Below are positions 7,801-34,905 of a stretch of 56,826 nt of DNA, in pieces. The DNA is taken from positions 1 to 56,826 of the IMG/VR virus record IMGVR_UViG_3300036770_001578. One strand, 5' to 3'. Origin of the DNA: a virus. Taxonomy: Duplodnaviria; Caudoviricetes. Each line of letters opens with the position of its first letter. Within the stretch, counting starts at the first letter, position 1. The notes beneath the pieces are model-generated. The model saw only the letters and a program-made list of their open reading frames with translations, was not told where the DNA came from and did not search any database. A program made the position numbers and the translations under genes.

Positions 7801-10800
7801 GCAGGCTTGATTGCTAACCTGATGTACCGTTTAAAACGGTTCTTCAGTGCCCTTGAGAATGCGTTTAAAGGCCTAGGGTTCCAGACCGCTGAGGATGTGT
7901 TTACACGCACCGAAGAAGGTAGATTGCAGGCTATCAGTCCTGCTACCCAATCTGGGGCTGGTAAGTTCGGCTTAAGAGCAGACCAGTCAGCCACCATGGA
8001 ATCTACTGGGGATAAAACTCCACTGAGCATAGATGGCATCAGGATCTATGAACGGGAGCTTCAAGGGCTTATTAAAAAGGTCGGTGACAGGATCGCTGGC
8101 ATGGACTCCACCAAGACCCTGGAGGATGTCCGTAAGGCCGTTAAGAAGCTTCAGAGCTATACCAAGCAGGGATTAGAAGGCAAGGAATGGTACGAGCGTT
8201 CTGCTCAGGCAGTCCTGGAGGCTTTCAATGGTGATCCAATTCTGGCAGAGAAGTTCTTCCAAGTAATTGCTATCACTTCCGCTAACACTGAGGTAGCAGC
8301 AAACTTCACCAAGGCTTCTAATGCATGGGAGCAATTTGCTACCGGTCGTCCCATCAAGGCTGGAACTAAACGGGAAAACGATGCAATTGATGACCTTCTG
8401 AACTTCGGTTTGGATTGGGACGGAAGAAAAACCAACACCTTCTATATCAACCTCATGGAAGCCATGGAGGGAACTGATACCGGAAGGTCTACGATTGATC
8501 TGCACATGTCTCGTATGCTGTTCGATCGGGACAGCCCAACTGATGCTCAATATCAGCTTGGTGAGAACATGGTTCGACTGCTTGCATCTAAGATAGGGAT
8601 ACCCGCTAGACAGGTGCAGGCCGCTTCTTGGGTTACCCAAAAAGCCAAGAAGATGTTTGATGATTACAGAGAGCGCGGCTTGAAGCGGAACATGTCCGAT
8701 GAAGAGCTACGCAATCATGCCTTCCAAAGAGCCCTTATGGACTATGCCCACTTGAGCAAGTCCAAGGGGTTCAGTCCCACCGTTACCCCAGAGCTTTTAG
8801 AACCCTCTGCGTCTAAACGGGCCAGAACTCAAGTTGTTACCGGGGAAGTTATTCCAACCACCAAAGGCTTTATGTCCCAGGTGGCAGAGCTTCCCATGAA
8901 TATCAAGGAGAAACTTACCAAGAACATCATGAATGAGTCTTTCATTCAGGACATTGGTAAGGCCCTGGGATTGACCAGCAAGATCCGAGTTGCCCAGGGA
9001 ACCGGTGGATATGACGGCGGTATCTCTCCGAATCTGATTGTCAGGCTTATCAATCCCGATCCTGCGGTAGCAGTTCAGGAAGCCAGAGACCTGTCGGATG
9101 CTATGAGCTATGTCTTCCAACAAGACGCAACTCCATTCTTCCGGGCAGATCCGGCATTGTTAGGTCAGGGACAGTTAGGCTATCGCTTCCGCTTTGGAAG
9201 GGCTGAACTGACGCCAACCCAGGAGCGTAAGATCTTTGCTGCTATGCGGGAAGAAGTAGGGAACGATGTTGGTTATTCCAAGACTAAGGATAACGACATT
9301 GTGGTTATCAATTACAGGGGTGAGGATGGCAATCCTTTCCTGACGGATGACAACAGTTTTGCTGACGCAATGAACAGGTTCCGCGAGAAGGCGGATCAGA
9401 TTGTTCCTATCGAAGATGCCAGTGTTTTTGGCGCTGAATCGGAGTACAGATACAATGAATGGAATGAACCCACTACTGGACAAAGTATTATCGATGGGCT
9501 TCAGGGCCGCAGACCAGAACGACCCAATCTATCAGGACAACTTACAGGTCTTCGTGACGCCTTCGTCAAGCAGGCTAGGTCTGCCGTCCGAGAATCCGGA
9601 GGGACTCCCAGATTCCAGCTTCGATCTTCAGAATTTGTCGGTGGACCCGGTCCAGATGGTGGCCTCGTTCTCGGAACAAAACAGCCTGGAGCAAAATCCT
9701 TCACAGGAATCCACTACGGAAAACAACAGGTAAACACCCTTGCTGGTTCCAGGTACGGGACTGGCATCAAAGGGCAGGAAGCAGCCCGTCTAGCAGAGTC
9801 TAAAGACCCTCGCATCAAGAAGCGGGTCTACTTCTACATCCCATTCCCGCAAGGCATGATGCCCCCGGTAGAAGCCGGGTTAGGGAATTATGTTTATCGT
9901 CAGAGGTTTGGAAATATCCTACCCCCAGGCGATGAGATGACGAGGCTGTATAACGCCTCTGAGGGCGACTACAACCGGTTTGAATCCAGCGTTATCGATG
10001 CCGGGTACGATGGCTATGCAGTCCCCAACATGGGGATGATGGTCATCATGAACCATGATGTCCCTGTTGATTACCTAGGTACTCGTCAAGAACTCAAAGG
10101 TACCGTTAACCTTCTTGGTAACCAGTACTCCCTAAGGGCTGTAAACACACCAGAGTTTAAACAGTGGTTCGGTAGCAGCACCATCACCAATCCTGATGGT
10201 TCACCCAAGGTCATGTATCACGGCACTGCCAGGGATATTGAAACCTTCAAACCTAAGCAGGCTAATGCAATCTTTGTAACTAACACTCCAAAGTTTGCCG
10301 GATTTTTTACGGATAATTCCGAAATCTTTATGGCAAAAGAACTTTACGCTTCGTTAAGCGATAAAGAAAAAGATTCAATTACTAGCAAAGCAAAAAAAAT
10401 TGCAAAAAAAGAAGGGACTAACATTGACGATGAGTTAATGAGTCTTTTAAGGGATCAGTTGCCTACTCGTGCAAACATCATGCCTTTGTATGTCCGGGCA
10501 GAGAAACCTTTTGATTACGAAAATCCGGATCATGTTTCTACAGTTCAAAATGCATTTAAGACTAGCACTTTTTATACTAACCTCACGAAAAACCAACGAC
10601 CATTTTATGACCGTATTTATGACCGATTAGAAGATGGTGATTGGTCGGATATAGAAAACTCATCGGTTCAAAAAATTATTCGTGATCTTGGGTTTGACTC
10701 TTTCTATGTCAGAGAGGGTTACCAAAAAAACCTTGCTGTCTACGATCCAAATCAAATCAAGTCTGCTGTTGGTAACTTCGGAGCCTTCTCTCGTACCAAT

Positions 10801-13800
10801 AACGACATCCGGTATTCGTTAGCACTGGCAGGTATCAACCCTCAGTCCTCTCTGGTTCCTGATGAGGGTGGTGACTCCCTTGGTCGTCTTGGAATGCAGC
10901 CACAAAAGCTTGGCGGCAGGCCTATCAATCTTCTGATCGGTACCCACAATGATCTGATCGATGAGCTTAAGAACGAGAAGATGTACCGCCCCGTTTCTTA
11001 TGGTGCTAACCATATCCTGAATCGTGTCTTGAATAACCCCAGGAGAGATCCAGGTGGTGCTCAAGAGCTTCTGGAAAGGATTGTCCGTAAGGCACAGCAG
11101 ATTGCTCGTAACTACAGCAGGGTCTACAAAGAGGGCAACAAGCTGATCTTCTTTGCTGGTAACGACAGTCTTATCACTATGGAAGATGGCTCTATCGTCA
11201 CCATGTACAGGCAGTTCGATCCAGAGCGTAAGTATGGGAATCCGATCTGGTTTGGCAGAGCGCCTGCTGTTACCGATTCCAAACCTCCCAAAGGGTTACC
11301 TGTTCGTGAACGGGATGGTCTTGTCTCTCCGAAAGATGTTGAGACCGCAGAGAAGGTCAAGCGCGTTTACACACCCATGGATGTGGAAGCGCTATCAGCA
11401 GCTTATGTGGAACCCAAGAAGGGAACCCTGGGGCTGAAGAAGGTCTCTGCTCTTGAACCCACTAGAAAAGAAGTACCTTCTCTCAACAATAAATTGTCTC
11501 TTCGTGTTTCGTACGCAAAGGTCAACAAGTTCTTTGATGACCAAGAAAAAATCCCTATGTCTGAAGACGTTGAAACCATTCGGGATAGTTGGATTGGCGG
11601 TGTTTCAGGGGTTGGAGAGAGAGACCTTGCCTACTACTTGAATCAAGTGAATGGTGGACCTCAGTACGTCCAGCAAGTCCAAAACTTGGTTCGTCGAGAT
11701 CTTGGCAATTCGTTTAAGGGCTACCGCTTAATGAGCCAGGAGGAAGTGGAAGAACTTCAGACTGGAGCGATGGGTTCACAACTAGCCTCTGTCAGCCTTG
11801 TTCCTGAGACTGCCCTTGCGCTTGCAAGCATCCCTCAGTACGCCAGAAGGCCAAAAGGTGATCTGGTAGTGGTAGAACTTGACCTAACACCAGAGCATGT
11901 CCAGATGGTTGGTCACCCTCCTGAGCGGGAACTTGTCATTGACTACGGGGTTGGATACAACCCAACCGCCATTGAACCAATGATCTCGCCTGTCAGATTC
12001 TCTTTGAGAGAATTTAGTCTTGATGATTTGCCACAAGACACTGATCGTGCTGTTTACACGCTACCTGCTGGAACCAAGTTGTACCACGGCTCCAACAAAG
12101 ACACTGCCGCTGAAATCAAAAAGGCTGGTCATGTTTTACTGGCTGCTCCTCCGTATAAATCAAGCGGTGGATACAACACAGAAGGCTACCTTGTTTGGTT
12201 TGGCGACAAAGAGACCGCAGATTTCTTTGCGACAGGTCCGGAAGGACAGGCTCGTGAAGATCAAAAAGAACCGGGAGAGGTTTTTGAAACAGTTACCGAT
12301 GAACCGCTAAAACTTATTCATTCAACCCAATACAAACTAGATGCTGATCAGGCAAAGAAAATAAATGATTTTTATGAGATGCCAGATTACAAATTATTTA
12401 AAGCGGGTGACTCACTTAGTTCAGTTAGTTGGAGAGTAACCTCAAATACCAATGCACTGAGAAAAGCAAAAAGTTACAGGGCCGAAGGCGCAGGAACACT
12501 GTACTCAGTCCTCAAGGACGTTGCACGACTTCTTGGGTTTGATGGTTACTACTACGACAATGGCATAGCACTTCCAGCAGAAAAAGGTATCTCGCTTGGT
12601 CTAACAGAGGCAGGTGAGTTTGTTGGGAAGCCAATGCAAAGGTTTTCTTTGCGCGAAAGCATTGACCCTACTGTCGTCAATGCTATCGATCGGACGACGA
12701 CTACCCGTAAAGAGGAGGGGTTTGGTGACCGGATGGCAGAGGCTATCTCTCCTACAGGGTTCACTAAGTTCCGTCAGGGGTTCATCAACAAGTACGAGAG
12801 GATTGCTCAGATCTCTAGGACGGTAGCCAAGAAGTTTGGTGACCAAGAGCTACTAGCAGACCAATCAGCGATCGCAGCGGCATTGATGTCTGACCGTGCA
12901 TCTGGGGTAGCAGCAGAAGCCTTCAAGAGAGGCATCCCGGTCTATGACAAGGGGTACACCTATGTCACCGACATGGAAGGCCAGCAGAAGGGCCTTATGC
13001 AGATCCTGATGCCATTGGCAGAGAGGGGAGATCCCTTCGTCTATCAGGCATTCCAGTTCTACGCCGCCTCCAAGAGAGGCAAAAGGCTGGATGCCGAAGG
13101 CCGCGAAAGACTCTTCACCCCAGATGACATGAAGAAGGCGGCATTGCTGGAGCGTGAGTTCCCTGAGTTCAAACAGGTCTTTGATGATTACCAGAAGTTC
13201 AACAAGGGTCTGGTGGATTACATGAAGGACACCGGTGTCATTGACGCTGAAATGGCTCGGAAGTGGACAGAGAACTGGGACTACATCCCCTTTTATCGTC
13301 AGCTTGACGGTGAGAGGACTGCAGGCCCGAACATCTTCCAGTCCATCGCGGGGGTAGCTCTGCCCAAGAAACTCAAGGGCGGAGAGGCTCCTCTGGCTGA
13401 CTTCCTTGAGACCATCACCAGAAACACCAGGGCGGCAATCGAGGCTGGCATGAAGAATGTGGCAGCTAACCGAGTCGTCCGTGACATGAAGCGTTTAAAC
13501 GATCCAGGCGGTACAGCGCCAATGATCGAGGAAATCAAGCCTGGACAAAGACTCGGACCTGATTCGATAACAGTCCGGGAGAATGGAAAGACCAAGAACT
13601 ACCGGGTAGCAGACCCTCTCTTGATCGAGTCCTTGAAGGGTTTAAATATCCCTCAGCTTCCGTTCCTGGAGGTTCTGGCAAAGCCTGCACAGGTCTTGCG
13701 TGAACTGGTAACCAAAGATCCTGGATTCATGATGGCTAACCTCCTGCGAGATTCCTTGCAGGCATGGGGTATTGGTAACCAGATATTCCCTGTGGTGGAT

Positions 13801-15183
13801 ACCTTCAAGCAGTACGCGAAGGTTCTGGCAAACATGTCCCCTGAGGCCCAGAAGCTTATGAGGGCTGGTATCGGTACCGGTTACGAGTTTAAGGGAGATG
13901 TTCAGGCCACAACCGAAGAGTTTGCAAGACAGCTTCGGATAGCGGCAGGACAAAGAACCGGAGGAGAAAAGGCAGCACTTCCGCTAACCAAGGCATGGGA
14001 TCTCTTAGACCAAGCCTCTACAGCTTCTGACTTAGCTACCCGTGCTGAGGTGTTTAAACGCACCATGGAGGAAACCAACGGGAACGAGGCTGAAGCTGTC
14101 TTCCAAGCTATGGAGGTGATGAACTTCTCCCGTAAGGGCTCTAACCCAATCATCCAGATTGCTGCTGCCGCTATACCGTTCCTAAACGCCCGTATTCAGG
14201 GCTTGGACGTCCTCTACCGGGCTGGGACAGGGCAACTATCAGCCCGTAACGCTGCAGCCCGTCAGAAGGCCTTCTTCGTTCGTGGTATGACCATGATGGC
14301 TCTCTCCTCTCTGTACTGGATGCTGGCATCTGAGACAGAGGAATGGCAGACCGCAGAGCAAGAGACCAGAGATAACAACTGGATCATCGGGCCTGTCAGG
14401 ATTCCTATCCCGTTTGAACTGGGCGTGATCTTCAAGGTAGCACCTGAGAGAATCCTGGAGTACACCTTCGGGGATGACACGACCAAGGACCTGAAGATGT
14501 CCTTTGTCAGGAACCTCACCTCGACCTTGGCTGTGAACCCCATTCCTCAGGCAATCCTGCCGATCGTTGAGAATGTTGCTAACTACAGCTTCTTTACCGG
14601 TCAACCCATTGTCGGAAGGGGGCTTGAGGATGTCTCTAAACCTTTCCAGGTCAATACCGGAACCTCCCTCTTTGCTTCTAAGGCAGGGGAGTCTTTGGGT
14701 CTCTCCCCGGTTCAGATTGATAACCTGATTCGTGGATACACAGGAACTCTGGGAGGTTATGCTGTCATGGCCTTAGATGCTGTCATGAGAGGCCAGGGAG
14801 ATCCAACCAAGGCCACCATGGGGGCTGAACAGCTACCGGTAATAAAGCGGTTCTTTGCTTCCCCTGAAAGCACCGGAACTGTGACCCAGTTCTATGAACT
14901 GAAGAACAAGCTTGATGAGACCACCAGGACAATCAACTTCCTGGAAAGGGCCGGTAAGTTTGACCAGATGGCGGAGTACATGAAGGAGAACGCCATGATG
15001 GTCTCCATGACCCCCTACATTCGAACCCTGGAGAAAGAGATGAATATGCTCAGGGATACCAAGAGGGTGGTTAACAATTCCCAGATGGAGCCTGATCAGA
15101 AGCGGGAGGTTCTGGATGCGATTCGTTCTGCTGAGGTGAACCTGACTCGGAATATCCAATCAGTAAGGAAGCTTGTTGATTAG
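4882..15183 (+). CDS. large polyvalent virion protein (zincin, HhH-like, ART-like x4, PBECR-like, LPD38-like)
   Basis: 3433 aa; HESIH zincin (7546-7560); WYE...AITS...TIDLHMSR...QVQAASWV; FKQWFG...PKVMYHGT...YDPNQIKSA; YGANHI; LYHGS; C-terminal RDNNWII...RIPIPFELGVIFK. Confidence 0.85.
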   Translation: MAYSLTLPNGAVINNIPDNISRNQAMDMLKEKMPDAFPQPPGVLSQLVRSPIEIGKGFIRGLTTDPLSGISSLAYTGARAAGAELTPFEQTAFGRGLGEAQTALAPSDTGMITQLAGGLGSLASFIPGGLLKGGIRLATLGTQAAGLGSEEARARAEQARLEGKEVTPEQQFISQVGGTGIGLTELAPVANLIRPIEAVLRGVKRSDADAIAPGLFNSARRILETGGIEAFQEGMANIMQDLVQKGVYDPNLEVGESALGDAAMGGAVGSFAQGAIELVTRGKRRDIYERLKAQEREQELQDRLARLQSEEQEQIARTKANLGVPEETLLALPAPAAPVIDAPTQDPLANPLGNFSIDELTTGISDFINAKRKRDGQSILDSFSIEDIADAGAPQAEIDRIIAGKLSQQGVNVEEGLAQNPSEQDVRNLAESKGISTDTPGYRHFLSRTTGVEDYGSMSPMQRLAAFTSLQNVEEGGILPLGTNAKRFTEQQYDKVKTSIPDLFKDSDTLSPTSVVEKVKKMTGLKSDRDARSLLDTAIRNGELSTAATPVYEVIKDGVILRKYNTRKAAAEAADRLNATIRNSTVTEFALPGTLKELPGGPDIRAGRFEAGVEPAGFDIKDATGKTLGGAATQAEAEAKATRFAATRQGEANRLQEEIQKIKEGVAGTQQRLEAMEATGQAGTVGFTKLQADAFAQAKEAQRKIEELSAQQAALAEPLSINSKGTRPVSREGYTFFQDGQPRGTFPTKEAAEEAAIQSYDDSFLERIANSGDQQRGLMPKRLAAMARNELARRRGELPQGFGIQYTGTPEEAEAKLSQAGVFTAKTQEQIRELEKKLLPAMKKLGLENVGLRIIKAIESGQGSADGFYASRLITIALDAVDPMGTLRHESIHALKNLGAFKPNEWKVLEKKAKEEWIDRFLKDRFTAQGVSLFDAYKAIYEQDNGSLAGFDEYITEEAIADAFKYFNQTKPPAGLIANLMYRLKRFFSALENAFKGLGFQTAEDVFTRTEEGRLQAISPATQSGAGKFGLRADQSATMESTGDKTPLSIDGIRIYERELQGLIKKVGDRIAGMDSTKTLEDVRKAVKKLQSYTKQGLEGKEWYERSAQAVLEAFNGDPILAEKFFQVIAITSANTEVAANFTKASNAWEQFATGRPIKAGTKRENDAIDDLLNFGLDWDGRKTNTFYINLMEAMEGTDTGRSTIDLHMSRMLFDRDSPTDAQYQLGENMVRLLASKIGIPARQVQAASWVTQKAKKMFDDYRERGLKRNMSDEELRNHAFQRALMDYAHLSKSKGFSPTVTPELLEPSASKRARTQVVTGEVIPTTKGFMSQVAELPMNIKEKLTKNIMNESFIQDIGKALGLTSKIRVAQGTGGYDGGISPNLIVRLINPDPAVAVQEARDLSDAMSYVFQQDATPFFRADPALLGQGQLGYRFRFGRAELTPTQERKIFAAMREEVGNDVGYSKTKDNDIVVINYRGEDGNPFLTDDNSFADAMNRFREKADQIVPIEDASVFGAESEYRYNEWNEPTTGQSIIDGLQGRRPERPNLSGQLTGLRDAFVKQARSAVRESGGTPRFQLRSSEFVGGPGPDGGLVLGTKQPGAKSFTGIHYGKQQVNTLAGSRYGTGIKGQEAARLAESKDPRIKKRVYFYIPFPQGMMPPVEAGLGNYVYRQRFGNILPPGDEMTRLYNASEGDYNRFESSVIDAGYDGYAVPNMGMMVIMNHDVPVDYLGTRQELKGTVNLLGNQYSLRAVNTPEFKQWFGSSTITNPDGSPKVMYHGTARDIETFKPKQANAIFVTNTPKFAGFFTDNSEIFMAKELYASLSDKEKDSITSKAKKIAKKEGTNIDDELMSLLRDQLPTRANIMPLYVRAEKPFDYENPDHVSTVQNAFKTSTFYTNLTKNQRPFYDRIYDRLEDGDWSDIENSSVQKIIRDLGFDSFYVREGYQKNLAVYDPNQIKSAVGNFGAFSRTNNDIRYSLALAGINPQSSLVPDEGGDSLGRLGMQPQKLGGRPINLLIGTHNDLIDELKNEKMYRPVSYGANHILNRVLNNPRRDPGGAQELLERIVRKAQQIARNYSRVYKEGNKLIFFAGNDSLITMEDGSIVTMYRQFDPERKYGNPIWFGRAPAVTDSKPPKGLPVRERDGLVSPKDVETAEKVKRVYTPMDVEALSAAYVEPKKGTLGLKKVSALEPTRKEVPSLNNKLSLRVSYAKVNKFFDDQEKIPMSEDVETIRDSWIGGVSGVGERDLAYYLNQVNGGPQYVQQVQNLVRRDLGNSFKGYRLMSQEEVEELQTGAMGSQLASVSLVPETALALASIPQYARRPKGDLVVVELDLTPEHVQMVGHPPERELVIDYGVGYNPTAIEPMISPVRFSLREFSLDDLPQDTDRAVYTLPAGTKLYHGSNKDTAAEIKKAGHVLLAAPPYKSSGGYNTEGYLVWFGDKETADFFATGPEGQAREDQKEPGEVFETVTDEPLKLIHSTQYKLDADQAKKINDFYEMPDYKLFKAGDSLSSVSWRVTSNTNALRKAKSYRAEGAGTLYSVLKDVARLLGFDGYYYDNGIALPAEKGISLGLTEAGEFVGKPMQRFSLRESIDPTVVNAIDRTTTTRKEEGFGDRMAEAISPTGFTKFRQGFINKYERIAQISRTVAKKFGDQELLADQSAIAAALMSDRASGVAAEAFKRGIPVYDKGYTYVTDMEGQQKGLMQILMPLAERGDPFVYQAFQFYAASKRGKRLDAEGRERLFTPDDMKKAALLEREFPEFKQVFDDYQKFNKGLVDYMKDTGVIDAEMARKWTENWDYIPFYRQLDGERTAGPNIFQSIAGVALPKKLKGGEAPLADFLETITRNTRAAIEAGMKNVAANRVVRDMKRLNDPGGTAPMIEEIKPGQRLGPDSITVRENGKTKNYRVADPLLIESLKGLNIPQLPFLEVLAKPAQVLRELVTKDPGFMMANLLRDSLQAWGIGNQIFPVVDTFKQYAKVLANMSPEAQKLMRAGIGTGYEFKGDVQATTEEFARQLRIAAGQRTGGEKAALPLTKAWDLLDQASTASDLATRAEVFKRTMEETNGNEAEAVFQAMEVMNFSRKGSNPIIQIAAAAIPFLNARIQGLDVLYRAGTGQLSARNAAARQKAFFVRGMTMMALSSLYWMLASETEEWQTAEQETRDNNWIIGPVRIPIPFELGVIFKVAPERILEYTFGDDTTKDLKMSFVRNLTSTLAVNPIPQAILPIVENVANYSFFTGQPIVGRGLEDVSKPFQVNTGTSLFASKAGESLGLSPVQIDNLIRGYTGTLGGYAVMALDAVMRGQGDPTKATMGAEQLPVIKRFFASPESTGTVTQFYELKNKLDETTRTINFLERAGKFDQMAEYMKENAMMVSMTPYIRTLEKEMNMLRDTKRVVNNSQMEPDQKREVLDAIRSAEVNLTRNIQSVRKLVD

Positions 15184-20974: not shown

Positions 20975-21376
20975 ATGAAAGAGAACGATAACACTAACAC
21001 GAGCGAAGTGCAAACATTTGTAGTTTACGGTGAGCCAGCATCAAAAGCAAATAGCCGGAAGATGGTCACCATCGGAGGGGTGCCGAGACTGATCAAGTCC
21101 AGGAAGGCTTTGTCCTACTCAGAGGCGTTTAAACTGCAATGCAAGGGCTCCCCGGTGGAGGGTGATGTCAAGGTATCTATGACCATCTACTACGCCTCCA
21201 GAAGGCCGGATTTGGACGAATCGCTGATATTGGATCTGCTGCAGGGAGTGGCTTACCTCAACGACCGTCAGGTCAAGGAGAAGCACATCATCTGGGGGTT
21301 GGATAAGGAAAACCCTAGGGCAGAGATCAGAGTCGAAAAAAAACCCCCGGACGTGCCGGGGGAAGGGGGGAGGTGA
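20975..21376 (+). CDS. rusA: RusA-like Holliday junction resolvase
   Basis: GEPASKANSR...RRPDLDE..ILDLLQG...NDRQV...NPRAEIRV; true start could be GTG 21008. Confidence 0.85.
   Translation: MKENDNTNTSEVQTFVVYGEPASKANSRKMVTIGGVPRLIKSRKALSYSEAFKLQCKGSPVEGDVKVSMTIYYASRRPDLDESLILDLLQGVAYLNDRQVKEKHIIWGLDKENPRAEIRVEKKPPDVPGEGGR
20985..21013 (-). promoter_or_regulatory. sigma70-like promoter for nuclease/erf operon
   Basis: Minus strand TTGCAC-N17-TATCGT just upstream of the 20960 start. Confidence 0.55.
21336..21362 (-). terminator. intrinsic terminator of leftward sRNA
   Basis: Minus strand CCCCCGG-cacgt-CCGGGGG followed by T8. Confidence 0.8.
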
Positions 21377-21420
21377 GTCAATCACCTTCGGAGAGTCTTG
21401 GAGGCTCAATTCCTAGACTG
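21336..21420 (-). ncRNA. putative ~85-nt antisense sRNA
   Basis: Bounded by near-consensus promoter and terminator; hairpins AGUCUAGGA-AUUGAGCC-UCCAAGACU and GGUGA-UUGAC-UCACC; complementary to 22536-22554. Confidence 0.65.
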
Positions 21421-22530: not shown

Positions 22531-22552
22531 CTAGTGTCAATCTGGAGGCTCA

Positions 22553-24226
22553 ATGAATCTGGCACATGTTTACGTATCACCAGGGCAAACCGTTCGGGTT
22601 GCCTGTCCTGAATGCAGTCCTCAACGCCGTAAGTTCAACAGCAAAGACCTGTCGGTCACGTCCAAGGACGATGGCCTTTTCTACTATTGTCATCACTGCG
22701 GGGCCTCTGGCGTCTTCTCGTCCCGCCCAAGGGAGAGAAAATTGTCAGCCGTTCCATCAGCCAAAACAATCCAAGCACCGCTAACAGCAGACCATCTTGC
22801 TTACCTCAGCACCAGAGGTATCAGTCAAGAGACAGCAGAGAGAATGAAGGTGTTCTCTGCCAGGAAATGGTTCAACCGTCTCGGGAAGGAAACCCAGGCG
22901 ATAGGTTTTCCCTACTATCGTGACGGCGTATTAGTTTCTGCCAAATACCGCAGCATCGAGGAGAAGGACTTCACCCAGGACGCTGGTGGCGCTCACGACT
23001 TCTTCGGGATTGATAACCTTGTACCAGACCACCCGATCGTTATCGTTGAGGGAGAGATAGACGCCCTTACCCTAATCGAATGTGGTATCCAAAACGCTCT
23101 ATCCGTCCCTGGAGGGGCTCCGCTGAAGGTGGCTGATGGTAAGGTACATGCCTCTGAAGACAAGCGCTTCTCGTTCGTCTGGAACGCCCATGAGGCCCTT
23201 GAGAGATCCCAGTGGGTCATCATTGCTACCGACAATGACGGGCCGGGGCAGGCTCTAGCCGAAGAGCTAGCCAGAAGGATAGGCAAAGACAAGTGCAAAC
23301 TAGCCAAACTTATCCACAAGGATTTAAACGAGACATTACTGAAGGATGGCAAGGAAGAGGTTTTAAGGATCGTTAACAGTGCAGAGCCTTACCCAGTAGA
23401 AGGATTGTCTTCAGCACAGGATTACAAGGATCGTTTAAACGACCTATGGGTAAAGGGGGTAGGGAAGGGTTGCTCTACCGGGTACGACACAGTAGACAGG
23501 ATTTACACGGTAGTACCAGGACAGCTAACAGTTGTGACGGGTTACCCCTCTTCGGGTAAATCGAACTTTGTAGACCAGATGATGGTCAACCTGGGAAGGA
23601 GAGAGGACTGGAAGTTTGCAGTCTGCTCTTTCGAAAACGCTCCAGAGATCCACATCTCCCGCCTGATGGAGATCTATATCGGCAAGAGGTTCTTTGAGGG
23701 AACCAAGAGGATGGAGCAGGAGGATCATGACAAGTCTTTCGAATGGGTCAATGACCACTTTATGTTTATGAACTCCGAGTCAGCAGAGCCAGCGACACTG
23801 GAATCAATCCTCGCAAGGGCCAAGGTAGCGGTTGCCCGGTACGGGATCAGAGGAATGGTGATCGATCCCTACAATTACATCGAGATGGGGCGAAGAGATG
23901 GAGCAGAAACAGAATCTATCAGCAACATGCTTTCTCGGGTTCAAGCGTTTGCAAAGGCCTATGGAGTCCATGTCTGGTTCGTTGCCCACCCCTCCAAGAT
24001 GCAGCGATCCGGAAACGAACTCCCAAGACCAGACGGGATGTCCATCTCCGGATCAATGGCATGGTGGGCAAAAGCAGACTGCGGGATCACAGTCCACCGG
24101 GTAGAGAAACAAACACAGATAGCGGTATGGAAATGCAGGTACCGCTGGGTTGGCAGTCAGGGAGAAACAAACCTGGACTTCGACCCCGTTACAGGAACCT
24201 ATAAGGAAGTCGAAGACGCCTTCTAG
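22553..24226 (+). CDS. primase-helicase (T7 gp4 / Twinkle-like)
   Basis: Zn finger CPEC...CHHC, TOPRIM VEGEIDAL/ATDND, Walker A GYPSSGKS, VIDPYN, FVAHP. Confidence 0.93.
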   Translation: MNLAHVYVSPGQTVRVACPECSPQRRKFNSKDLSVTSKDDGLFYYCHHCGASGVFSSRPRERKLSAVPSAKTIQAPLTADHLAYLSTRGISQETAERMKVFSARKWFNRLGKETQAIGFPYYRDGVLVSAKYRSIEEKDFTQDAGGAHDFFGIDNLVPDHPIVIVEGEIDALTLIECGIQNALSVPGGAPLKVADGKVHASEDKRFSFVWNAHEALERSQWVIIATDNDGPGQALAEELARRIGKDKCKLAKLIHKDLNETLLKDGKEEVLRIVNSAEPYPVEGLSSAQDYKDRLNDLWVKGVGKGCSTGYDTVDRIYTVVPGQLTVVTGYPSSGKSNFVDQMMVNLGRREDWKFAVCSFENAPEIHISRLMEIYIGKRFFEGTKRMEQEDHDKSFEWVNDHFMFMNSESAEPATLESILARAKVAVARYGIRGMVIDPYNYIEMGRRDGAETESISNMLSRVQAFAKAYGVHVWFVAHPSKMQRSGNELPRPDGMSISGSMAWWAKADCGITVHRVEKQTQIAVWKCRYRWVGSQGETNLDFDPVTGTYKEVEDAF

Positions 24227-26648: not shown

Positions 26649-26966
26649 TTAAACGCCCCTACCGCTTTGGCAGGGCCACATGGCTGTTAGCTTGTTTGCG
26701 ATGATGCTGTCAGCGCTGTAATGCCGACTGCCTGGATTGTCTTCCAGGTGCTTTCTGATGATGTCTGTTAACTGACCTGCCGTGATGTTCGTGGGGGGAC
26801 ATACGACAATGCTGTACAGTGCATCGGTAACACCAAGCACGTACCCAAGGGCTAAACCTCTGTTAACACTACCTCCATTCATGTCTCTTAAAAGATCGTT
26901 GCCAGACATGAAGTGGGCACATGCAATTGATGGCGCTATCAAAAAACAGGCGATGATTTTTTTCAT
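26649..26966 (-). CDS. Rap1a-like immunity protein with signal peptide
   Basis: MKKIIACFLIAPSIACA signal; SGNDLL...GYVLGVTD...CPP...GQL..I..KHL..NP..RH..A...WPC. Confidence 0.75.
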   Translation of the reverse strand: MKKIIACFLIAPSIACAHFMSGNDLLRDMNGGSVNRGLALGYVLGVTDALYSIVVCPPTNITAGQLTDIIRKHLEDNPGSRHYSADSIIANKLTAMWPCQSGRGV

Positions 26967-27151
26967 TTCAGTTCCCTCTCTTTCAGTTCTTTAATTACCT
27001 CTTCGTTTCCTTCCGCTATCACTATCGCTTGCCTGATAGCGGCATTCCAGCCCTCAAGAAACCCTCTCCCAAAGGGAGAGGACTTCATTTGGATTCCGGT
27101 GATACCTGTCTCTGCAAAGCAGTACTTGTTCCATGCCTCTTCTACATTCAT
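26963..27151 (-). CDS. hypothetical protein
   Basis: 62 aa, ATGA-coupled. Confidence 0.55.
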   Translation of the reverse strand: MNVEEAWNKYCFAETGITGIQMKSSPFGRGFLEGWNAAIRQAIVIAEGNEEVIKELKERELK

Positions 27152-27909
27152 TTGGTAAGTGTCCTTATGAGTTTTTGGAACATCGCATTCTTGAGTTCAG
27201 ATGCTGTTCTGATGTTCACGCTGTTGGTGAATACTTTGTTAACACTGTGGGAGCAGACACCGATGACAACCAGCGTCACCCCAAGCTTCTCTGCCATAAC
27301 CTCCAGGTGCTTGACATGTTCCTGTATATAACCCGTTGCATCGGTGAGGAAGAACAAGACACGTCTTTGTTCTGGCCTGCGTGAGATCTCATCAATCGCC
27401 CAGTACAGGGATGCGTAGTCAGGCGTCCCGCCAGCAGCGATCTTGTGCATGTACCCAAGCTTGCCTTGAGCGTTGCCAAGTCTCTCCCCCCAGGTCTTGA
27501 ACCTAATGAAGGTAGGCCTCTCGATGTACTCACCGTTGACAGTCTCGTAGGAAAGCTCATGGTTACCAAAACCGTAGACCGCAAACGGTACCTTGGTTTT
27601 GTTCAGGATCTCTCCCAAATGGATCGATACTTTCTGAGCCTCTCCGATCCTGCTGCTCATTGAACCGGAGCAATCCACCATGATCATCACCGAAGACTTC
27701 TCGGCCTCTTTGTACTCACGCCGGGAGAAGATCGAAGACTCACCACAAGCAAACCGGGTAAGGGCTCTCTTGTCTAGCCTCCCGGCTTCCTCTCTCTTTG
27801 ACCATCCGACAGAGTCAATACTGCGAAGAAGCCTGCTGATCTGATTGCGGATAGCGCCTGCCCCGATATCTTCCTGGGCTATCTGTTGGTACTTGTTAAC
27901 GTAGGTCAT
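27148..27909 (-). CDS. vWA domain protein (CobT C-terminal-like)
   Basis: GRLDKRAL, MIDAS DCSGSM, GGTPD, FFLTD; GGGAG RBS and ATGA overlap at 27906-27909. Confidence 0.85.
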   Translation of the reverse strand: MTYVNKYQQIAQEDIGAGAIRNQISRLLRSIDSVGWSKREEAGRLDKRALTRFACGESSIFSRREYKEAEKSSVMIMVDCSGSMSSRIGEAQKVSIHLGEILNKTKVPFAVYGFGNHELSYETVNGEYIERPTFIRFKTWGERLGNAQGKLGYMHKIAAGGTPDYASLYWAIDEISRRPEQRRVLFFLTDATGYIQEHVKHLEVMAEKLGVTLVVIGVCSHSVNKVFTNSVNIRTASELKNAMFQKLIRTLTK

Positions 27910-28802
27910 GCTTTCTCCCATGGGAACTTGTAATCAATTGGTTTGCCAATCGCTGGCCTTGGGTAAACCTTGTCTGCCTTGCAGGGTTTGGTCTCCATGT
28001 GTAGCGAGATCTCTACCGGGATGGCCTTCTCTCTTCCCTTTCCTGAAGAGGCGCCCTTCTGCTTGTCTCCTTCCTCCCCCTCACCTTCACCCTCACCTTC
28101 GCCCTCACCTTCGCCTTCACCTTCGCCCTCACCTTCCTTCTCTTCCTCCAGGGCCTCTTGGGTCTGCTCGTTCAGATCCCTTTGGTTCCGGGGTTTGATC
28201 TCTTTGAGTAGATCGATGGCAATCTTCACAATCTCGTCAGTACTCTCGGCCTTATGTGCAGCGTTAACAGCCCGGAGCAGGGGTTCAGCATGGACAGACC
28301 TTTCAAGGATTGGAGCCACGTTGATGGGATACCCGTTTAAACGTCTGCCATCAACAGCCAGGAAGAACGGGTAGTTAACGACATCGTTCGGATCGTAGTT
28401 GCCATTGGCTACCTCATTGATCAGGTGTTCAAACAGGTTGCGGGAGTTAGGCACCCTTCCGGACTCGTAGACCTTCCGCTCGATGCGGGGATCTTCCAGA
28501 CCGTTAATCAGGTGCCCAAGGTATGCCCCATGCTTGTCGATCGCGTCATCCCAGGGGGCCCTGTCGGTAAACCACAGGTGCCCGAGTTCATGGGCTGCAT
28601 ACCCGACAAGCTTCTGAAGCATTGCCCTGGGGAATATTGCGGTATCGTCCAGGTCTGGGAACATTAGGACAATCCCTTCCTTCTCCCGGATCACCCCGGC
28701 GGTTTTGCCCTGCCACAGAACCCGAATGATGTTCAGATCCTGCTGGGCATTGATCCGCTCAAAGGTAGCGACAGTCGATCGCTTGACTTCCACCCCTAAC
28801 AT
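27906..28802 (-). CDS. CobT N-terminal-like HExxH protein with acidic (GE)n tail
   Basis: GYAAHELGHLWFTD...NGLEDPRIE; EGEGEG repeat near C-terminus. Confidence 0.75.
   Translation of the reverse strand: MLGVEVKRSTVATFERINAQQDLNIIRVLWQGKTAGVIREKEGIVLMFPDLDDTAIFPRAMLQKLVGYAAHELGHLWFTDRAPWDDAIDKHGAYLGHLINGLEDPRIERKVYESGRVPNSRNLFEHLINEVANGNYDPNDVVNYPFFLAVDGRRLNGYPINVAPILERSVHAEPLLRAVNAAHKAESTDEIVKIAIDLLKEIKPRNQRDLNEQTQEALEEEKEGEGEGEGEGEGEGEGEGEGEEGDKQKGASSGKGREKAIPVEISLHMETKPCKADKVYPRPAIGKPIDYKFPWEKA
28076..28138. repeat. 6-bp coding tandem repeat encoding (GE)n
   Basis: tcaccc/tcacct/tcgccc units on the + strand. Confidence 0.85.
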
Positions 28803-30256
28803 AAAGCCTCCTTCATCTTTTTGATGTTGATCATTGCTGAGAACACCCCATCAAGTTCGCCATGGACTTCCTGGGGAAACTTGTTGAGGATCGTTGCTTC
28901 GAAAGACTTGATGACCGGAACCCCGGCCTTCAGTGCCCTGGCCCACGCAAAGAGTTGCCGAAGGCTGGGCGGTTGGGTTAACAACCCAGACCTAGCCTTC
29001 TCCCTAGCAGCGTTAGCAAACTGCACAATCTGGCTAGCAGCATCCAGAGAGATCCCAGTCCTGCGATGGATCAGTTCACCTTCCTGCTTGCTGCCCAGGT
29101 ACTCAAACCTCAGGGTGTAGCTGAACCGATCCAGGAAAGCGGAGTTCTGCTCCCTGACCCCTGCAAAGTTCCCAGACGCATCGCCATGGCCTGTACTGTT
29201 ATCAGCAGCAAAGAAGGCCACATGGGAGGCAACAGGGAACCTCTCCCCGGTCTCAGGAACCGAGAGAGATCGATGAACAGACCTCTCGCAAAGGGAGTGC
29301 AAGACCGCGAGGTTCTGTGCCCTTGCGAACCCAACCTCATCGAGCAGCACCAGGGCACCGGGGTAGCTGATGGCCTGGGTGATGATCCCCGGCTTCCAGA
29401 CCACGTTGCCTTCCTGGATGGTGTTAGCACCGATGTAGTCGGATCTCTCCAAGGCCTCATCGAAGTTCACCCGGAACAGGCGCCTCTTCAGACGAGCGGC
29501 AAGCTGGGTGACGAACTCGGTCTTTCCGGTGCCTCTCTCCCCTGCCAGCCAGCAGTTATCAGGCAACCCGTCAGAAAGGGCTACAAGGGCCTGATGCAGG
29601 TGTTCTGGGGGGAAGACATAGTCTTCGACTACGGGAGGCGCTAGCGGGTCATCCCAGACCTGTACGGGCATCCCACCGAAGTCGATCGACTCCTCGGTTG
29701 TCCAGTACCGGGTAGCGCTCTCAGGAAAGAGGTCTCTGGCCTTCACTGTCTGGAATTTAGGCAGTGCTTTTGCAACCTCTTCCAAGACCTCCACGGGCTC
29801 GGTCTTGCGGAACTGATCAAACAGGCGAGAGACTTCCTCGGTGATCCTGCTGTTATCCACAGGGGAGACCTTGCTCTCCAGGGTTAGGATCTTCCGGTCT
29901 GTCCACTCCCGGAGGTCTTTTTCGATCGTTGACAGTTGCTCCCCGATCGCTAGCCGTTCAGCGTCCAGGGTCTCTTCAACCTGCTTGATCTTCTCCTGAA
30001 GCTTGGCAACAGACCGGGAGGCCATAACGTCCTGGGCAACCTGGGTTACCGGATCAGATGCTATCGGCCTCTCTGCCCTCTGCATCAGTTGGATATCAGA
30101 GACTGTGGTCAGACCGCTCTCCACGGCTTTGGCAAGGTTATGGACAACCTTGGCCTTGACGGTCTCGTAATTCCCAAGACCCAGGGACACCTGGGCATTA
30201 TTCAGTTGCTCAAGGGGCAGCAGGGCTAGCTGCCGTGCGATTTGTTGTGAGTTCAT
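28796..30256 (-). CDS. CobS/MoxR-like AAA+ ATPase
   Basis: Walker A GERGTGKT, Walker B LLDEV, NSAFLDRF, SLRQL; N-terminal coiled coil. Confidence 0.9.
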   Translation of the reverse strand: MNSQQIARQLALLPLEQLNNAQVSLGLGNYETVKAKVVHNLAKAVESGLTTVSDIQLMQRAERPIASDPVTQVAQDVMASRSVAKLQEKIKQVEETLDAERLAIGEQLSTIEKDLREWTDRKILTLESKVSPVDNSRITEEVSRLFDQFRKTEPVEVLEEVAKALPKFQTVKARDLFPESATRYWTTEESIDFGGMPVQVWDDPLAPPVVEDYVFPPEHLHQALVALSDGLPDNCWLAGERGTGKTEFVTQLAARLKRRLFRVNFDEALERSDYIGANTIQEGNVVWKPGIITQAISYPGALVLLDEVGFARAQNLAVLHSLCERSVHRSLSVPETGERFPVASHVAFFAADNSTGHGDASGNFAGVREQNSAFLDRFSYTLRFEYLGSKQEGELIHRRTGISLDAASQIVQFANAAREKARSGLLTQPPSLRQLFAWARALKAGVPVIKSFEATILNKFPQEVHGELDGVFSAMINIKKMKEALC

Positions 30257-32418: not shown

Positions 32419-32645
32419 GCTGCCTCCTGGGTTTCACGTTTAATTGCATTGATAGCATCTCGCTTGCCGCCATTGCCACTAACACGATTGGTAATGGCGT
32501 AGCCGTCACCTTGCGGTTCGCATTGGGTTGCCTCAAACGAGTAGTAGTACCGAAAACCGTCCATCTTGTTGCCAAGCCGGGATCGGTAAATCGTCACCGA
32601 CCAGTTTTCATGGACGAAATGCGCCTCACCGCGAAAGAAATTCAT
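32415..32645 (-). CDS. hypothetical protein
   Basis: Start reassigned to ATG 32645 (GGAGG RBS, ATGA overlap). Confidence 0.6.
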   Translation of the reverse strand: MNFFRGEAHFVHENWSVTIYRSRLGNKMDGFRYYYSFEATQCEPQGDGYAITNRVSGNGGKRDAINAIKRETQEAA

Positions 32646-32926
32646 GCTGCCTCCTGATCTTCTTGCTGCTCCTTGTTGAGTTGCTCCAGCCTCTCGGCAA
32701 CCAGGGCAAACACCTGGGAGACGGCCTGCGCCACTTCCACCTGGGTTGCCCCAGGTTTCCAGCCGCCGCAACCGTAGTTCATGCTGATGTCCCGCACCCT
32801 GCCCCTGTAAAGCCGCACGTTAATAACCGCAACTTCGTCCCAGTGGGTCTGGGGGCTAACGAAACGGTGATGCATAATCCCCGATCCAGTCGGGTCAATA
32901 CTGCGAACGATGTTTTCTTGAATCAT
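32642..32926 (-). CDS. hypothetical protein directly downstream of hammerhead 1
   Basis: 94 aa with AGGAGG RBS. Confidence 0.65.
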   Translation of the reverse strand: MIQENIVRSIDPTGSGIMHHRFVSPQTHWDEVAVINVRLYRGRVRDISMNYGCGGWKPGATQVEVAQAVSQVFALVAERLEQLNKEQQEDQEAA

Positions 32927-32945
32927 GGTAGAGCCTCCTGTGGTT

Positions 32946-32995
32946 GTCTGAGACCCCCGAAGGGGTTTCGGCTATTGAAGCCTCGTCAGTCAGAC
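32946..32995 (-). ncRNA. type I hammerhead ribozyme
   Basis: GUCUGA-CUGACGA-GGCU(ucaau)AGCC-GAAA-CCCC(uucg)GGGG-UC/UCAGAC; full core and three intact stems. Confidence 0.92.
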
Positions 32996-33193
32996 TGCTT
33001 TGGGTTCACCCCCAGTGCATTTCAAAAGATCGGAGAGAGGAACCATGATGGACTCATAACCTCCGCAATAAATCGATGCACAAGCCGAATGCCCATGCAC
33101 CGTCTCTGGATGGATGCAAACGACAAAACCAGCGATGCGCCGGAATGCACCCGGTTTTGTTCGTACCTTGTCGCCTACTTGAATCTCGTTCAT
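32990..33193 (-). CDS. hypothetical SH3/KOW-like small protein
   Basis: IQVGDKVRTK...GFVVCI; stop codon lies in hammerhead stem I. Confidence 0.6.
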   Translation of the reverse strand: MNEIQVGDKVRTKPGAFRRIAGFVVCIHPETVHGHSACASIYCGGYESIMVPLSDLLKCTGGEPKAV

Positions 33194-33300
33194 ACAGCCC
33201 CCTTCCGGTGTTTTTGTTTACGGGAATACTTGGTGCGAACGGTATGCCTCCCGGCACCGCAAGAGCGGGAGTGCTTCGCTACGAAATTACGCTGCTTCAT
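33190..33300 (-). CDS. 36-aa basic peptide (not in ORF track)
   Basis: MKQRNFVAKHSRSCGAGRHTVRTKYSRKQKHRKGAV; GGAGG RBS; ATGA overlap with next gene. Confidence 0.65.
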   Translation of the reverse strand: MKQRNFVAKHSRSCGAGRHTVRTKYSRKQKHRKGAV

Positions 33301-33302
33301 GG

Positions 33303-33377
33303 TCAAACCTCCATTAATAGAACGATGCAGATAACTGCTATGTAAAAAGCGACAGCAATCAAAAGAATGTCCATCAT
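33303..33377 (-). CDS. 24-aa membrane peptide
   Basis: MMDILLIAVAFYIAVICIVLLMEV; AGGAGG RBS. Confidence 0.55.
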   Translation of the reverse strand: MMDILLIAVAFYIAVICIVLLMEV

Positions 33378-33388
33378 TCTTGAGCCTC

Positions 33389-33460
33389 CTAAAGAAAGAA
33401 AAGAATCATGACCTTGGCAAAGGTCAGCCAACATACTGTTCCGAAAATGAATGCCTGCAT
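33389..33460 (-). CDS. 23-aa membrane peptide
   Basis: MQAFIFGTVCWLTFAKVMILFFL; GGGAGG RBS. Confidence 0.5.
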   Translation of the reverse strand: MQAFIFGTVCWLTFAKVMILFFL

Positions 33461-33475
33461 GGTGTTCCTCCCTGT

Positions 33476-33676
33476 TTAAACGATGAAGTCAGGATGGGTA
33501 TCAATCCCCAAAGAAGAGGCCAGTGCTAGCATCTCTTCCTGATCCTTCCTGCGTAGTGCTGCCCGGATTGCTGCGGATATGGATCGAGCCGCATATCCCA
33601 GAATGTCCTGGTTGCCGGGGTTGGATTCAACGAACTGTTTTGCGTATCCGCAGACTCTCTGCTGGTGCTTGGTCAT
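33476..33676 (-). CDS. first early-operon hypothetical protein
   Basis: 66 aa with AGGAG RBS immediately after hammerhead 2. Confidence 0.65.
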   Translation of the reverse strand: MTKHQQRVCGYAKQFVESNPGNQDILGYAARSISAAIRAALRRKDQEEMLALASSLGIDTHPDFIV

Positions 33677-33689
33677 AAAGTCTCCTGGT

Positions 33690-33739
33690 GGGTTTCGCCC
33701 TTATGGGCTCGTCAGTACCAGTTCTGCACTGGTAGACCC
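33690..33739 (-). ncRNA. type III hammerhead ribozyme
   Basis: GGG-UC/UACCAGU(gcaga)ACUGGUA-CUGACGA-GCCC(auaa)GGGC-GAAA-CCC. Confidence 0.9.
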
Positions 33740-33939
33740 GATTTTGTTCACTAGAGACACATGTCCCTGGTTGGCGGTATTCCCAACCGTTGGAGCCTTC
33801 CCCCAACCGAGCCTTTGTTTAAGCCCCCAAAGTCCAGAGGGCACCCCATTCAACGCTGGGGCACTGCGTCTTCGATTCTGTAGATCCCGGTAGGTAAGTG
33901 GTGATCAGGTGAATCGGTACTGCTTACTGCTTAGACCGA

Positions 33940-33968
33940 ATGTTAGTGCCAAAGTTTAAACGATGCAA
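33940..33968 (-). promoter_or_regulatory. early leftward sigma70 promoter
   Basis: TTGCAT-N17-TAACAT with GTTTAAAC in the spacer. Confidence 0.65.
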
Positions 33969-34001
33969 GCATATTGTCCCACTACCTTTGTCGGGTATTA
34001 C

Positions 34002-34014
34002 TAAGTCATTGATA
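34002..34014 (-). promoter_or_regulatory. IHF-site-like motif
   Basis: TATCAATGACTTA matches WATCAANNNNTTR upstream of the early promoter. Confidence 0.45.
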
Positions 34015-34284
34015 ACGCTAGCAATTAATTGTTGAGTATTTTCTGGGGTTATACCTGGACAGAGGGTTACAGAGGGGTTTCCGGGGATCTTTAGGGGTGT
34101 AAACGGGGAGAAGCCGAAGGCGAGCGGATTACTACATCTAGTACAGAACAGAGGCGATGAGTACTACCGCTAGTAATGAGCTAACAGCAGACAAGGGTTG
34201 ACGCAGTCCGTTTAAACGGTAACCATTCGGGCATTGACGATAGGGTTGCCTACCGTTATCACTACAAAGGAAGGAGACAGAGAA

Positions 34285-34905
34285 ATGGACAAGGTTTCAT
34301 TGATAGATGAACTGGACTCAGACACAAGCACCGAAGACCAGGACGATGCAAGCACCATCAGCGCGGGGCTAGGTATCAGCGAAGCGATGCGGAAGAAAGC
34401 CGCCCAAGTAAAACCACATCGAAGAAAAGATGGAAAAGAGTATGGTCATAAAGAGAGAAGACCAGGAAGACTAACAGAGAGACAGCAGCAGTTCGCAAGC
34501 CTTGTAGCTCAAGGGTTAGCACCCAAGGACGCATACAAGAAGGCATACAACCATAGAACAGACAATGAGGCATCAGCAGTCGCATCTGCCCACAAGCTAA
34601 TGCGGAATGAGAAGGTGGCTGCACTTATCGGCTCTGTCTTTGACACCATAAAAGAAAACATCATTGCCGATGCAGTGGCAACAAGGCGTCACGTCATGGA
34701 GCAACTGATCAAGCATGCAGAGGGCGCCAAGCATGAGAGTACCAAGCTCAAGGCCTTGGAACTGATGGGTAAGGCAGTCGGTATGTTCACTGACAGAGTG
34801 GAGCAAAAGGTCGAAGAGGTAAGCACAGAGCGGCTTAAGAAGGAACTGCAGTCAAGCCTCGCTCTGTTAGACAACGTCAGACCTATTGGCAAACGCACTG
34901 CCTGA
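34285..34905 (+). CDS. terS: terminase small subunit
   Basis: LTERQQQFA...DAYKKAY...AHKLMRNEKV...KLKALELMGKAVGMFTDRVE; AAGGAG RBS before ATG 34285. Confidence 0.8.
   Translation: MDKVSLIDELDSDTSTEDQDDASTISAGLGISEAMRKKAAQVKPHRRKDGKEYGHKERRPGRLTERQQQFASLVAQGLAPKDAYKKAYNHRTDNEASAVASAHKLMRNEKVAALIGSVFDTIKENIIADAVATRRHVMEQLIKHAEGAKHESTKLKALELMGKAVGMFTDRVEQKVEEVSTERLKKELQSSLALLDNVRPIGKRTA

Follow-up and report, generated by a model that had tools for sequence, protein, structure and literature searches.

Predicted type I and type III hammerhead ribozymes upstream of small genes in the leftward operon of an uncultured temperate phage

A complete type I hammerhead, here called HH-A, was found on the minus strand of a phage genome at positions 32946 to 32995, between two genes of the same orientation. 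Judged from its sequence and from that of its relatives, HH-A is probably a functional ribozyme in the leftward non-structural operon of a temperate phage, where it would provide protein-free processing of a polycistronic mRNA. The genome is an IMG/VR virus record, 92% complete by estimate, and the window, that is, the whole stretch of DNA that was analyzed, is the entire record of 56,826 bp. A type III hammerhead, HH-B, which the first-pass annotation of this DNA had missed, was found on the same strand 740 nt upstream of HH-A. The two elements are unannotated RNAs for this genome, and they predict exact mRNA ends at positions 32951 and 33734. The parts of HH-A, as read from the sequence, and its surroundings are as follows.

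32946..32995, minus strand: HH-A, complete type I hammerhead with stem I open-ended (sequence and descriptor match; helices of 6, 4 and 5 bp)
32995-32990 paired with 32951-32946, minus strand: stem I of HH-A, 6 bp
32989-32983, minus strand: core CUGACGA of HH-A
32982-32970, minus strand: stem II hairpin of HH-A, 4 bp with a 5-nt loop
32969-32967, minus strand: GAA of HH-A
32966-32953, minus strand: stem III hairpin of HH-A, the A15.1-U16.1 pair and four C-G pairs with a UUCG loop
32952, minus strand: C17 of HH-A
32951..32952, minus strand: site at which HH-A is predicted to cut itself, after C17 and thus between 32952 and 32951 (hammerhead consensus)
32934..32939, minus strand: AGGAGG Shine-Dalgarno sequence of the 94-aa gene, 12 nt after the predicted HH-A cut
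32990..33193, minus strand: 67-aa ORF upstream of HH-A (ORF list)
32642..32926, minus strand: 94-aa ORF downstream of HH-A, with its ATG at 32926-32924, 26 nt past the predicted cut

The catalytic core of HH-A agreed with the hammerhead consensus (C3 U4 G5 A6 N7 G8 A9, G12 A13 A14 and H17, which is not G), and its helices were those of a type I element: stem I is open, stems II and III are capped by loops, and the G10.1-C11.1 and A15.1-U16.1 pairs are present. The centroid fold of the 50-mer was a three-way junction, and the fold energy of the 111-nt context was not unusual (z = -0.95). The first-pass annotation had described this core, a 6-bp stem I, a 4-bp stem II and a UUCG-capped stem III, and all of these parts lie on the minus strand where it had placed them; its positions for the cut between 32952 and 32951, for AGGAGG 12 nt further on and for the upstream stop codon within stem I were found to hold as well. 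That stop codon, the UGA of the 67-aa ORF, occupies 32992-32990 in the 5' strand of stem I, so that it remains on the upstream cleavage product. The 32-nt leader remaining after cleavage (32951-32920) gave an open centroid and an MFE of -1.2 kcal/mol, and is predicted to be unstructured. A reading of HH-A as an intrinsic terminator was rejected because no U-tract follows the UUCG hairpin.

A descriptor covering all three hammerhead topologies, with an exact core and perfect helices, was run over the whole 56,826-bp genome. Only two matches were found, HH-A and HH-B, both on one strand and each just before a Shine-Dalgarno sequence. At least one loose descriptor match occurred in 79 of 1000 dinucleotide-preserving shuffles (approximately 8%); matches as compact as HH-A and HH-B, with at least 15 pairs in total and closed loops of at most 8 nt, were found in 2 of 2800 shuffled genomes. 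The parts of HH-B and of the block that the two ribozymes enclose are listed below.

33690..33739, minus strand: HH-B, type III hammerhead (pattern and descriptor match; helices of 7, 4 and 4 bp)
33739-33736 paired with 33693-33690, minus strand: stem III of HH-B, 4 bp (sequence)
33735, minus strand: C17 of HH-B, with the predicted cut at 33735/33734 (sequence and hammerhead consensus)
33734-33716, minus strand: stem I hairpin of HH-B, 7 bp (sequence)
33715-33709, minus strand: core CUGACGA of HH-B (sequence)
33708-33697, minus strand: stem II hairpin of HH-B (sequence)
33476..33686, minus strand: Shine-Dalgarno sequence AGGAGA (33686-33681) and 66-aa ORF with its ATG at 33676 (ORF list and sequence)
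32952..33734, minus strand: predicted 783-nt processed RNA between the HH-B and HH-A cuts (from the two cleavage sites and the ORF list)

HH-B was found to have the features of a type III hammerhead, namely a canonical core, an open stem III, capped stems I and II, and covariation in its relatives. It ends 3 nt before the AGGAGA of the 66-aa ORF, with which the leftward operon opens. A long-range helix was present in the MFE fold between 33749-33766 and 33674-33690 on the minus strand; one arm lies upstream of the predicted HH-B cut, and the other contains the Shine-Dalgarno sequence and AUG of the 66-aa gene. The helix lengthens stem III of HH-B and can coexist with the ribozyme fold. This helix is not claimed as a feature, since shuffled upstream arms were equally or more stable in 548 of 2000 cases. 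The 783-nt block was found to contain the 66-aa and 67-aa ORFs together with several ORFs of 23 to 43 aa. Among the latter, a 23-aa ORF at 33389-33460 of the window (minus strand) is hydrophobic, and a 43-aa ORF at 33303-33434 (minus strand) ends in a second hydrophobic stretch of approximately 24 aa and carries, just before an internal Met-Met, a copy of GGAGGCTC, the 8-mer of the ribosome-binding site downstream of HH-A. Terminator-like hairpins were more common in 32500-34400 than in shuffles (6 versus 1.8 +/- 1.4), and several of them, such as the one at 33102-33074, fall within the 67-aa ORF (minus strand). The spacer at 33650-34300 held no notable repeats.

Type I hammerheads were also found in three of 41 TerS-related IMG/VR loci, on the same strand and the same side of TerS as HH-A. 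The carriers were L012, with two copies, L013, with a sequence identical to that of L012, and L021, so that these loci hold two distinct sequences; no hammerhead was detected in the other 38 loci by the descriptor or by custom model R1. When R1 was run over 43 loci and the window, no type I copies were found beyond the input sequences and L013. The four distinct type I sequences differed from one another in stems I, II and III with compensating changes, and in each of them a Shine-Dalgarno sequence lies 6 to 8 nt after stem I and is followed by a start codon.

An exact-pattern scan of IMG/VR gave a far broader set of relatives. The pattern consisted of the core, CGAAAC and GTCT in that order, separated by two variable gaps, with stem I and the stem sequences left unspecified, and it matched at least 120 stretches. 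Among the matches listed, 172 descriptor-valid type I hammerheads were found in 112 of 120 loci, often two to seven per contig and on one strand. Model R1 was then searched against the window, L012, L021 and 97 of the 120 listed loci, which gave 145 matches. In the alignment of these matches (alignment A2; 135 distinct sequences), 93.7% of the cells were paired compared to 29-35% in slid controls, both-sided changes were present in 13 of 15 pairs, and the covariation score was reached by none of 500 shuffles. Stem I, which was absent from the search pattern, was 98% paired. The G10.1-C11.1 and A15.1-U16.1 pairs were kept in 134 and 135 of the 135 distinct sequences, respectively; conservation of the core in these alignments, which were model-fitted to a sample selected by a core-bearing pattern, is by construction. 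These findings support the helices of HH-A by strong compensatory covariation among relatives in viral contigs. They also bear out the first-pass identification of HH-A as a type I hammerhead that lies between two genes of one orientation and on their coding strand, to which the core with its three helices, the rarity of such matches in shuffles and the covariation all contribute.

The surroundings of the ribozyme were compared in 168 distinct type I cases drawn from the listed matches, including those of the window, L012 and L021, after identical contexts had been merged. A same-strand ORF of at least 40 codons started within 45 nt past the cut in 140 of the 168 cases, at a median distance of 26 nt, which is also the distance in HH-A. 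The stop codon of an upstream ORF on the same strand was nearby in 150 of the 168, and in 114 of these 150 it lay at -3 to +8 of the first base of stem I (+3 in HH-A). Stem I was exactly 6 bp long in 129 of 168 cases, and an A was present before stem I in 132 of 167 and after it in 141 of 168. The commonest form of stem II, with 115 cases, had the loop U-N-A-N-U, in which the first U, the A and the last U were found in 115, 105 and 90 of the 115, respectively. HH-A showed every one of these layout and signature features, including the 6-bp stem I, the A flanks and the U-N-A-N-U loop II. Natural hammerheads require a tertiary contact between stem I and loop II for fast cleavage at cellular Mg2+ concentrations, and the unpaired A flanks and loop II sequence fit such a predicted contact. 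The tight spacing of stop and start codons may reflect genome compaction instead of a functional link to translation.

Annotation with Rfam at gathering thresholds gave no match in the whole window. The best local score of HH-A was obtained with RAGATH-1-hammerhead (20.2 bits, E = 0.33 in a 251-nt search, compared to a gathering score of 56.3), and Hammerhead_3 scored 18.4 bits in the wrong register. Membership of HH-A in the RAGATH-1 hammerheads (RF03152) was rejected on the basis of this score and of the aligned 5' hairpin, which falls inside the upstream ORF. No match to Hammerhead_1 (RF00163) was found at E ≤ 10 in the genome; its gathering score of 34 bits is an operational criterion for annotation and not a biochemical defining feature. 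The type I sibling in L021 scored 24.4 bits against the same model. HH-B gave the best sub-threshold match in the window, 34.8 bits to Hammerhead_3 (RF00008), with E values of 2.6e-6 locally and 9e-4 window-wide, and did not reach the gathering score of 48.5. Scoring with hammerhead covariance models had been named as a check in the first-pass annotation; at Rfam thresholds, HH-A was not called. Custom model R1 gave HH-A 70 bits, HH-A being among the sequences from which R1 was built. When 12 viral loci (L044, L045, L050, L061, L068, L071, L074, L079, L085, L087, L095 and L119) were searched with Rfam 15 at gathering thresholds, none of their 41 R1 type I matches was called and only two tRNAs were reported, which indicates that the Rfam hammerhead models under-call the phage type I class. 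Routine annotation thus misses a common phage element, for which alignment A2 could yield a dedicated model.

Relatives of HH-B were sought in the same manner. The type III pattern matched at least 120 IMG/VR stretches, 114 of which were new loci, and among the matches listed 45 descriptor-valid type III hammerheads were found in 41 of the 114 new loci, with six earlier-matched loci excluded. The next start followed the end of stem III at a median distance of approximately 19 nt. Model R2, searched against the window and 99 of the 114 listed new loci, gave 48 matches, in which 97.5% of the cells were paired compared to 26-48% after sliding, and 12 of 15 pairs showed both-sided changes. Nine distinct loci (L192, L195, L166, L213, L219, L231, L234, L243 and L245) carried ribozymes nearly identical to HH-B, with a mean column identity of 93% over ten sequences including HH-B; relative to these, HH-B had a different loop I and, in stem II, a compensatory swap. 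In L213, L219, L231 and L234 a short GC-rich hairpin was present directly 5' of the ribozyme, with the stop codon of the upstream gene in or beside its loop, and this hairpin is absent at that position in HH-B.

The genes downstream of the HH-B-like copies were found to be different from one another. Among the ORFs of the 10 distinct loci there was one similar pair only, at 23% identity, and L195 and L245 had the upstream gene in common (85% identity) and not the downstream gene. This pattern suggests that the unit formed by ribozyme and Shine-Dalgarno sequence marks a boundary at which genes may have been swapped. A wider reading, which we consider rather unlikely and put forward as a lead, is that the unit is a portable expression cassette that would trim its gene to a standard leader; since near-identical copies stand before unrelated genes, it would also be a recombination joint for swaps of small accessory genes.

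The genome encodes, on the plus strand, the small and large terminases and an SU10-type portal, and elsewhere a tyrosine integrase, an ERF recombinase, a PD-(D/E)XK nuclease, a primase-helicase and an AAA_5/vWA pair. This gene content indicates a temperate phage. The large terminase was 51-59% identical to those of phage 023Pt_psg01 and of Pelagibacter phages HTVC027P and HTVC023P, and megablast and blastn searches of the region against GenBank phages gave no nucleotide match. A Rap1a-immunity-like protein (26649-26966, minus strand; Pfam E = 3.7e-16), an AAA_5/CbbQ ATPase beside a CobT-type vWA protein (27148-30256, minus strand) and a 3433-aa ORF to which no family was assigned (4882-15183, plus strand) were also observed.

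The genes flanking HH-A and HH-B belong to a non-structural leftward operon that is opened by the 66-aa ORF, next to the divergent terminase genes. No Pfam family was found for the 66-, 67- and 94-aa ORFs or for the several ORFs of 23 to 43 aa. A PHROG search of four flanking ORFs gave one marginal match only (the 94-aa ORF to phrog_31816, E = 0.0078), a locus search with the 94-aa protein found no relative, and the small ORFs that flank the ribozymes had no homologue in the 41 IMG/VR loci that share TerS. The neighboring DUF7417, 218-aa and AAA genes, in contrast, were common to 11 to 29 of the 41 TerS-related loci, indicating that the hammerheads are located in an accessory, variable part at the start of the operon. 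This is the only part of the operon that lacks homologues in the 41 loci, which is in keeping with the cassette reading given above. As 38 of the 41 loci lack a hammerhead and the flanking ORFs lack homologues, HH-A is not positionally conserved in the lineage, and selection on HH-A at the level of the locus cannot be shown directly. A scan of 32500-34400 for sigma-70-like promoters gave 0 sites, and transcription through HH-A is therefore assumed from the orientation of the genes. Early expression of the leftward operon is plausible from its gene content.

The first-pass annotation had also pointed out that the ribosome-binding site downstream of HH-A matches the seed of a putative sRNA at 21336-21420. 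The 8-nt match is literal; a link beyond generic pairing of the Shine-Dalgarno type was not borne out, as GGAGGCTC has 6 genomic copies compared to 2.9 expected, and 6 or more copies were present in 7 of 100 shuffles. One of them, at 22544-22551, immediately precedes the ORF at 22553-24226, so that the recurrence appears to be due, at least in part, to ordinary Shine-Dalgarno context. Another, at 21400-21407, is on the plus strand, and a minus-strand RNA ending at 21362-21336 would carry its complement. The putative sRNA corresponds to an intrinsic-terminator-like element at 21336-21362 (minus strand), a 7-bp GC hairpin followed by eight U, upstream of which the same strand holds CCUCC-containing stretches complementary to Shine-Dalgarno sequences (21396-21410).

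When a hammerhead cleaves, the upstream RNA is left with a 2',3'-cyclic phosphate and the downstream RNA with a 5'-OH. In the reading that we favor, the RNA of HH-A, once its 50 nt had been transcribed, would fold into the three-way junction and cut itself after C17 (32952). The upstream product would retain the stop codon of its last gene, and stems II and III of the ribozyme body would form its 3' end, which would carry a 2',3'-cyclic phosphate. Position 32951 would be the 5'-OH end of the downstream product, in which an unstructured 12-nt leader would precede AGGAGG and the 94-aa ORF. HH-B, which lies in the 5' leader of the 66-aa gene, would act as the mirror image, in that the upstream leader would be removed and the ribozyme body kept at the 5' end of the message. 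Through both cuts, the primary transcript would give rise to separate mRNAs whose ends are defined and either structured or clean. One of these would be the 783-nt RNA (33734-32952), which would start with a 5'-OH in the HH-B body and terminate with a 2',3'-cyclic phosphate in the HH-A body. The predicted effect is that stability and translation of the neighboring small accessory genes would be decoupled. Simple, testable predictions on the purpose of bacterial and phage hammerheads follow from the layout seen in 168 contexts and from the sides of the cut, opposite in type I and type III elements, on which the ribozyme body would remain.

Cleavage might instead be slow or conditional within a genuine hammerhead fold, the RNA serving mainly as a regulated switch or a stabilizing structure; we consider this unlikely. 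Cutting could, for example, be gated by ribosomes that finish the upstream ORF and unwind stem I. A stop codon that overlaps stem I or lies only a few nt from it, as found in 114 of 150 family cases and in HH-A, is in keeping with such gating, and regulated cleavage has been raised for phage hammerheads in passages of an earlier report (PMC3088659). The overlap with the stop codon is equally explained by genome compaction, however, and neither the 50-mer nor the 111-nt folds showed a structure that competes with the ribozyme. Moreover, the core of HH-A is fully canonical, and the conserved loop II and flank signatures would fit a fast ribozyme stabilized by tertiary contacts.

Because two hammerheads on the same strand flank the 783-nt block, it could also be proposed that the 783-nt RNA is excised by HH-A and HH-B and then circularized by a host ligase of the RtcB type, to whose reaction 5'-OH and 2',3'-cyclic-phosphate ends would be suited. 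This is very improbable, since most family members among the matches listed are single and stand before ordinary genes, and since spliced or circular products were not detected from clustered prophage hammerheads, according to the passages of the report that deal with them (PMC3088659). That HH-A is a chance match, or a plain GC hairpin of a terminator or stabilizer resembling a hammerhead, can practically be dismissed: the lack of a significant Rfam type I match and the loose matches in approximately 8% of shuffled genomes would allow it, but compact matches occurred in 2 of 2800 shuffles against two in this genome, no U-tract follows the UUCG hairpin, and the same architecture recurs with covariation in 145 viral-contig matches.

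Self-cleavage as a means of processing the operon message, the reading preferred here, has several counterparts among known systems. In the early mRNA of T7, host RNase III cuts double-stranded hairpins between genes, yielding separate mRNAs with structured ends that carry a 5'-phosphate and a 3'-OH. The first-pass analogy with these sites appears fair as one of function, since both would be intergenic cuts in a polycistronic phage mRNA; unlike in T7, the RNA of HH-A and HH-B would cut itself and leave 5'-OH and 2',3'-cyclic-phosphate ends. RiboJ, an engineered insulator made from a satellite-RNA hammerhead, is placed upstream of a ribosome-binding site, where it trims the leader and frees translation from the influence of upstream sequence. 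The phage elements likewise lie directly upstream of a ribosome-binding site; they are of natural origin and widespread, with a putative effect on translation. Under the cassette reading, the unit of ribozyme and Shine-Dalgarno sequence would be the natural counterpart of such synthetic insulators.

Clustered prophage hammerheads are the closest parallel. In the passages of Perreault et al. (2011; PMC3088659) on these clusters, three tandem arrangements are described as cleaving in vitro and one as cleaving in E. coli, and the proposed role is the cutting of long phage transcripts into mRNAs of gene or operon length. Like the clusters described there (PMC3088659), HH-A and HH-B differ in topology, lie close together in integrase-bearing phage DNA and flank a short block of small non-conserved genes; the published clusters flank such blocks or single genes. 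As far as that description goes, they differ in being a new locus in an uncultured phage, in which a pair of type III and type I elements brackets a 783-nt block, and in being known from sequence alone. In the same report (PMC3088659), HHphage of haloviruses HF1 and HF2 is described as a hammerhead at the beginning of an early polycistronic transcript, 13 nt upstream of a start codon and with its cut near a mapped 5' end. HH-A and HH-B resemble it in lying a few nt upstream of a start codon; HHphage is described there as having an atypical core insertion and a requirement for high salt, whereas the cores of HH-A and HH-B are canonical.

Type I is given as the hammerhead form typical of DNA from bacteria and phages in the relevant part of one report (PMC13725137). 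Two others, in the sections that consider function (PMC6765202, PMC6155905), present the biological role of bacterial and phage hammerheads as a matter not yet settled and name differential stability or translation as the chief proposals. HH-A and HH-B belong to this already well-known kind of phage element, and published hammerhead alignments may already contain the architecture of HH-A. What is added here is HH-B, the quantified layout of stop codon, ribozyme and Shine-Dalgarno sequence with its loop and flank signatures, the finding that Rfam 15 called none of 41 sampled type I matches, and the lead that nearly identical units of ribozyme and Shine-Dalgarno sequence stand before unrelated genes.
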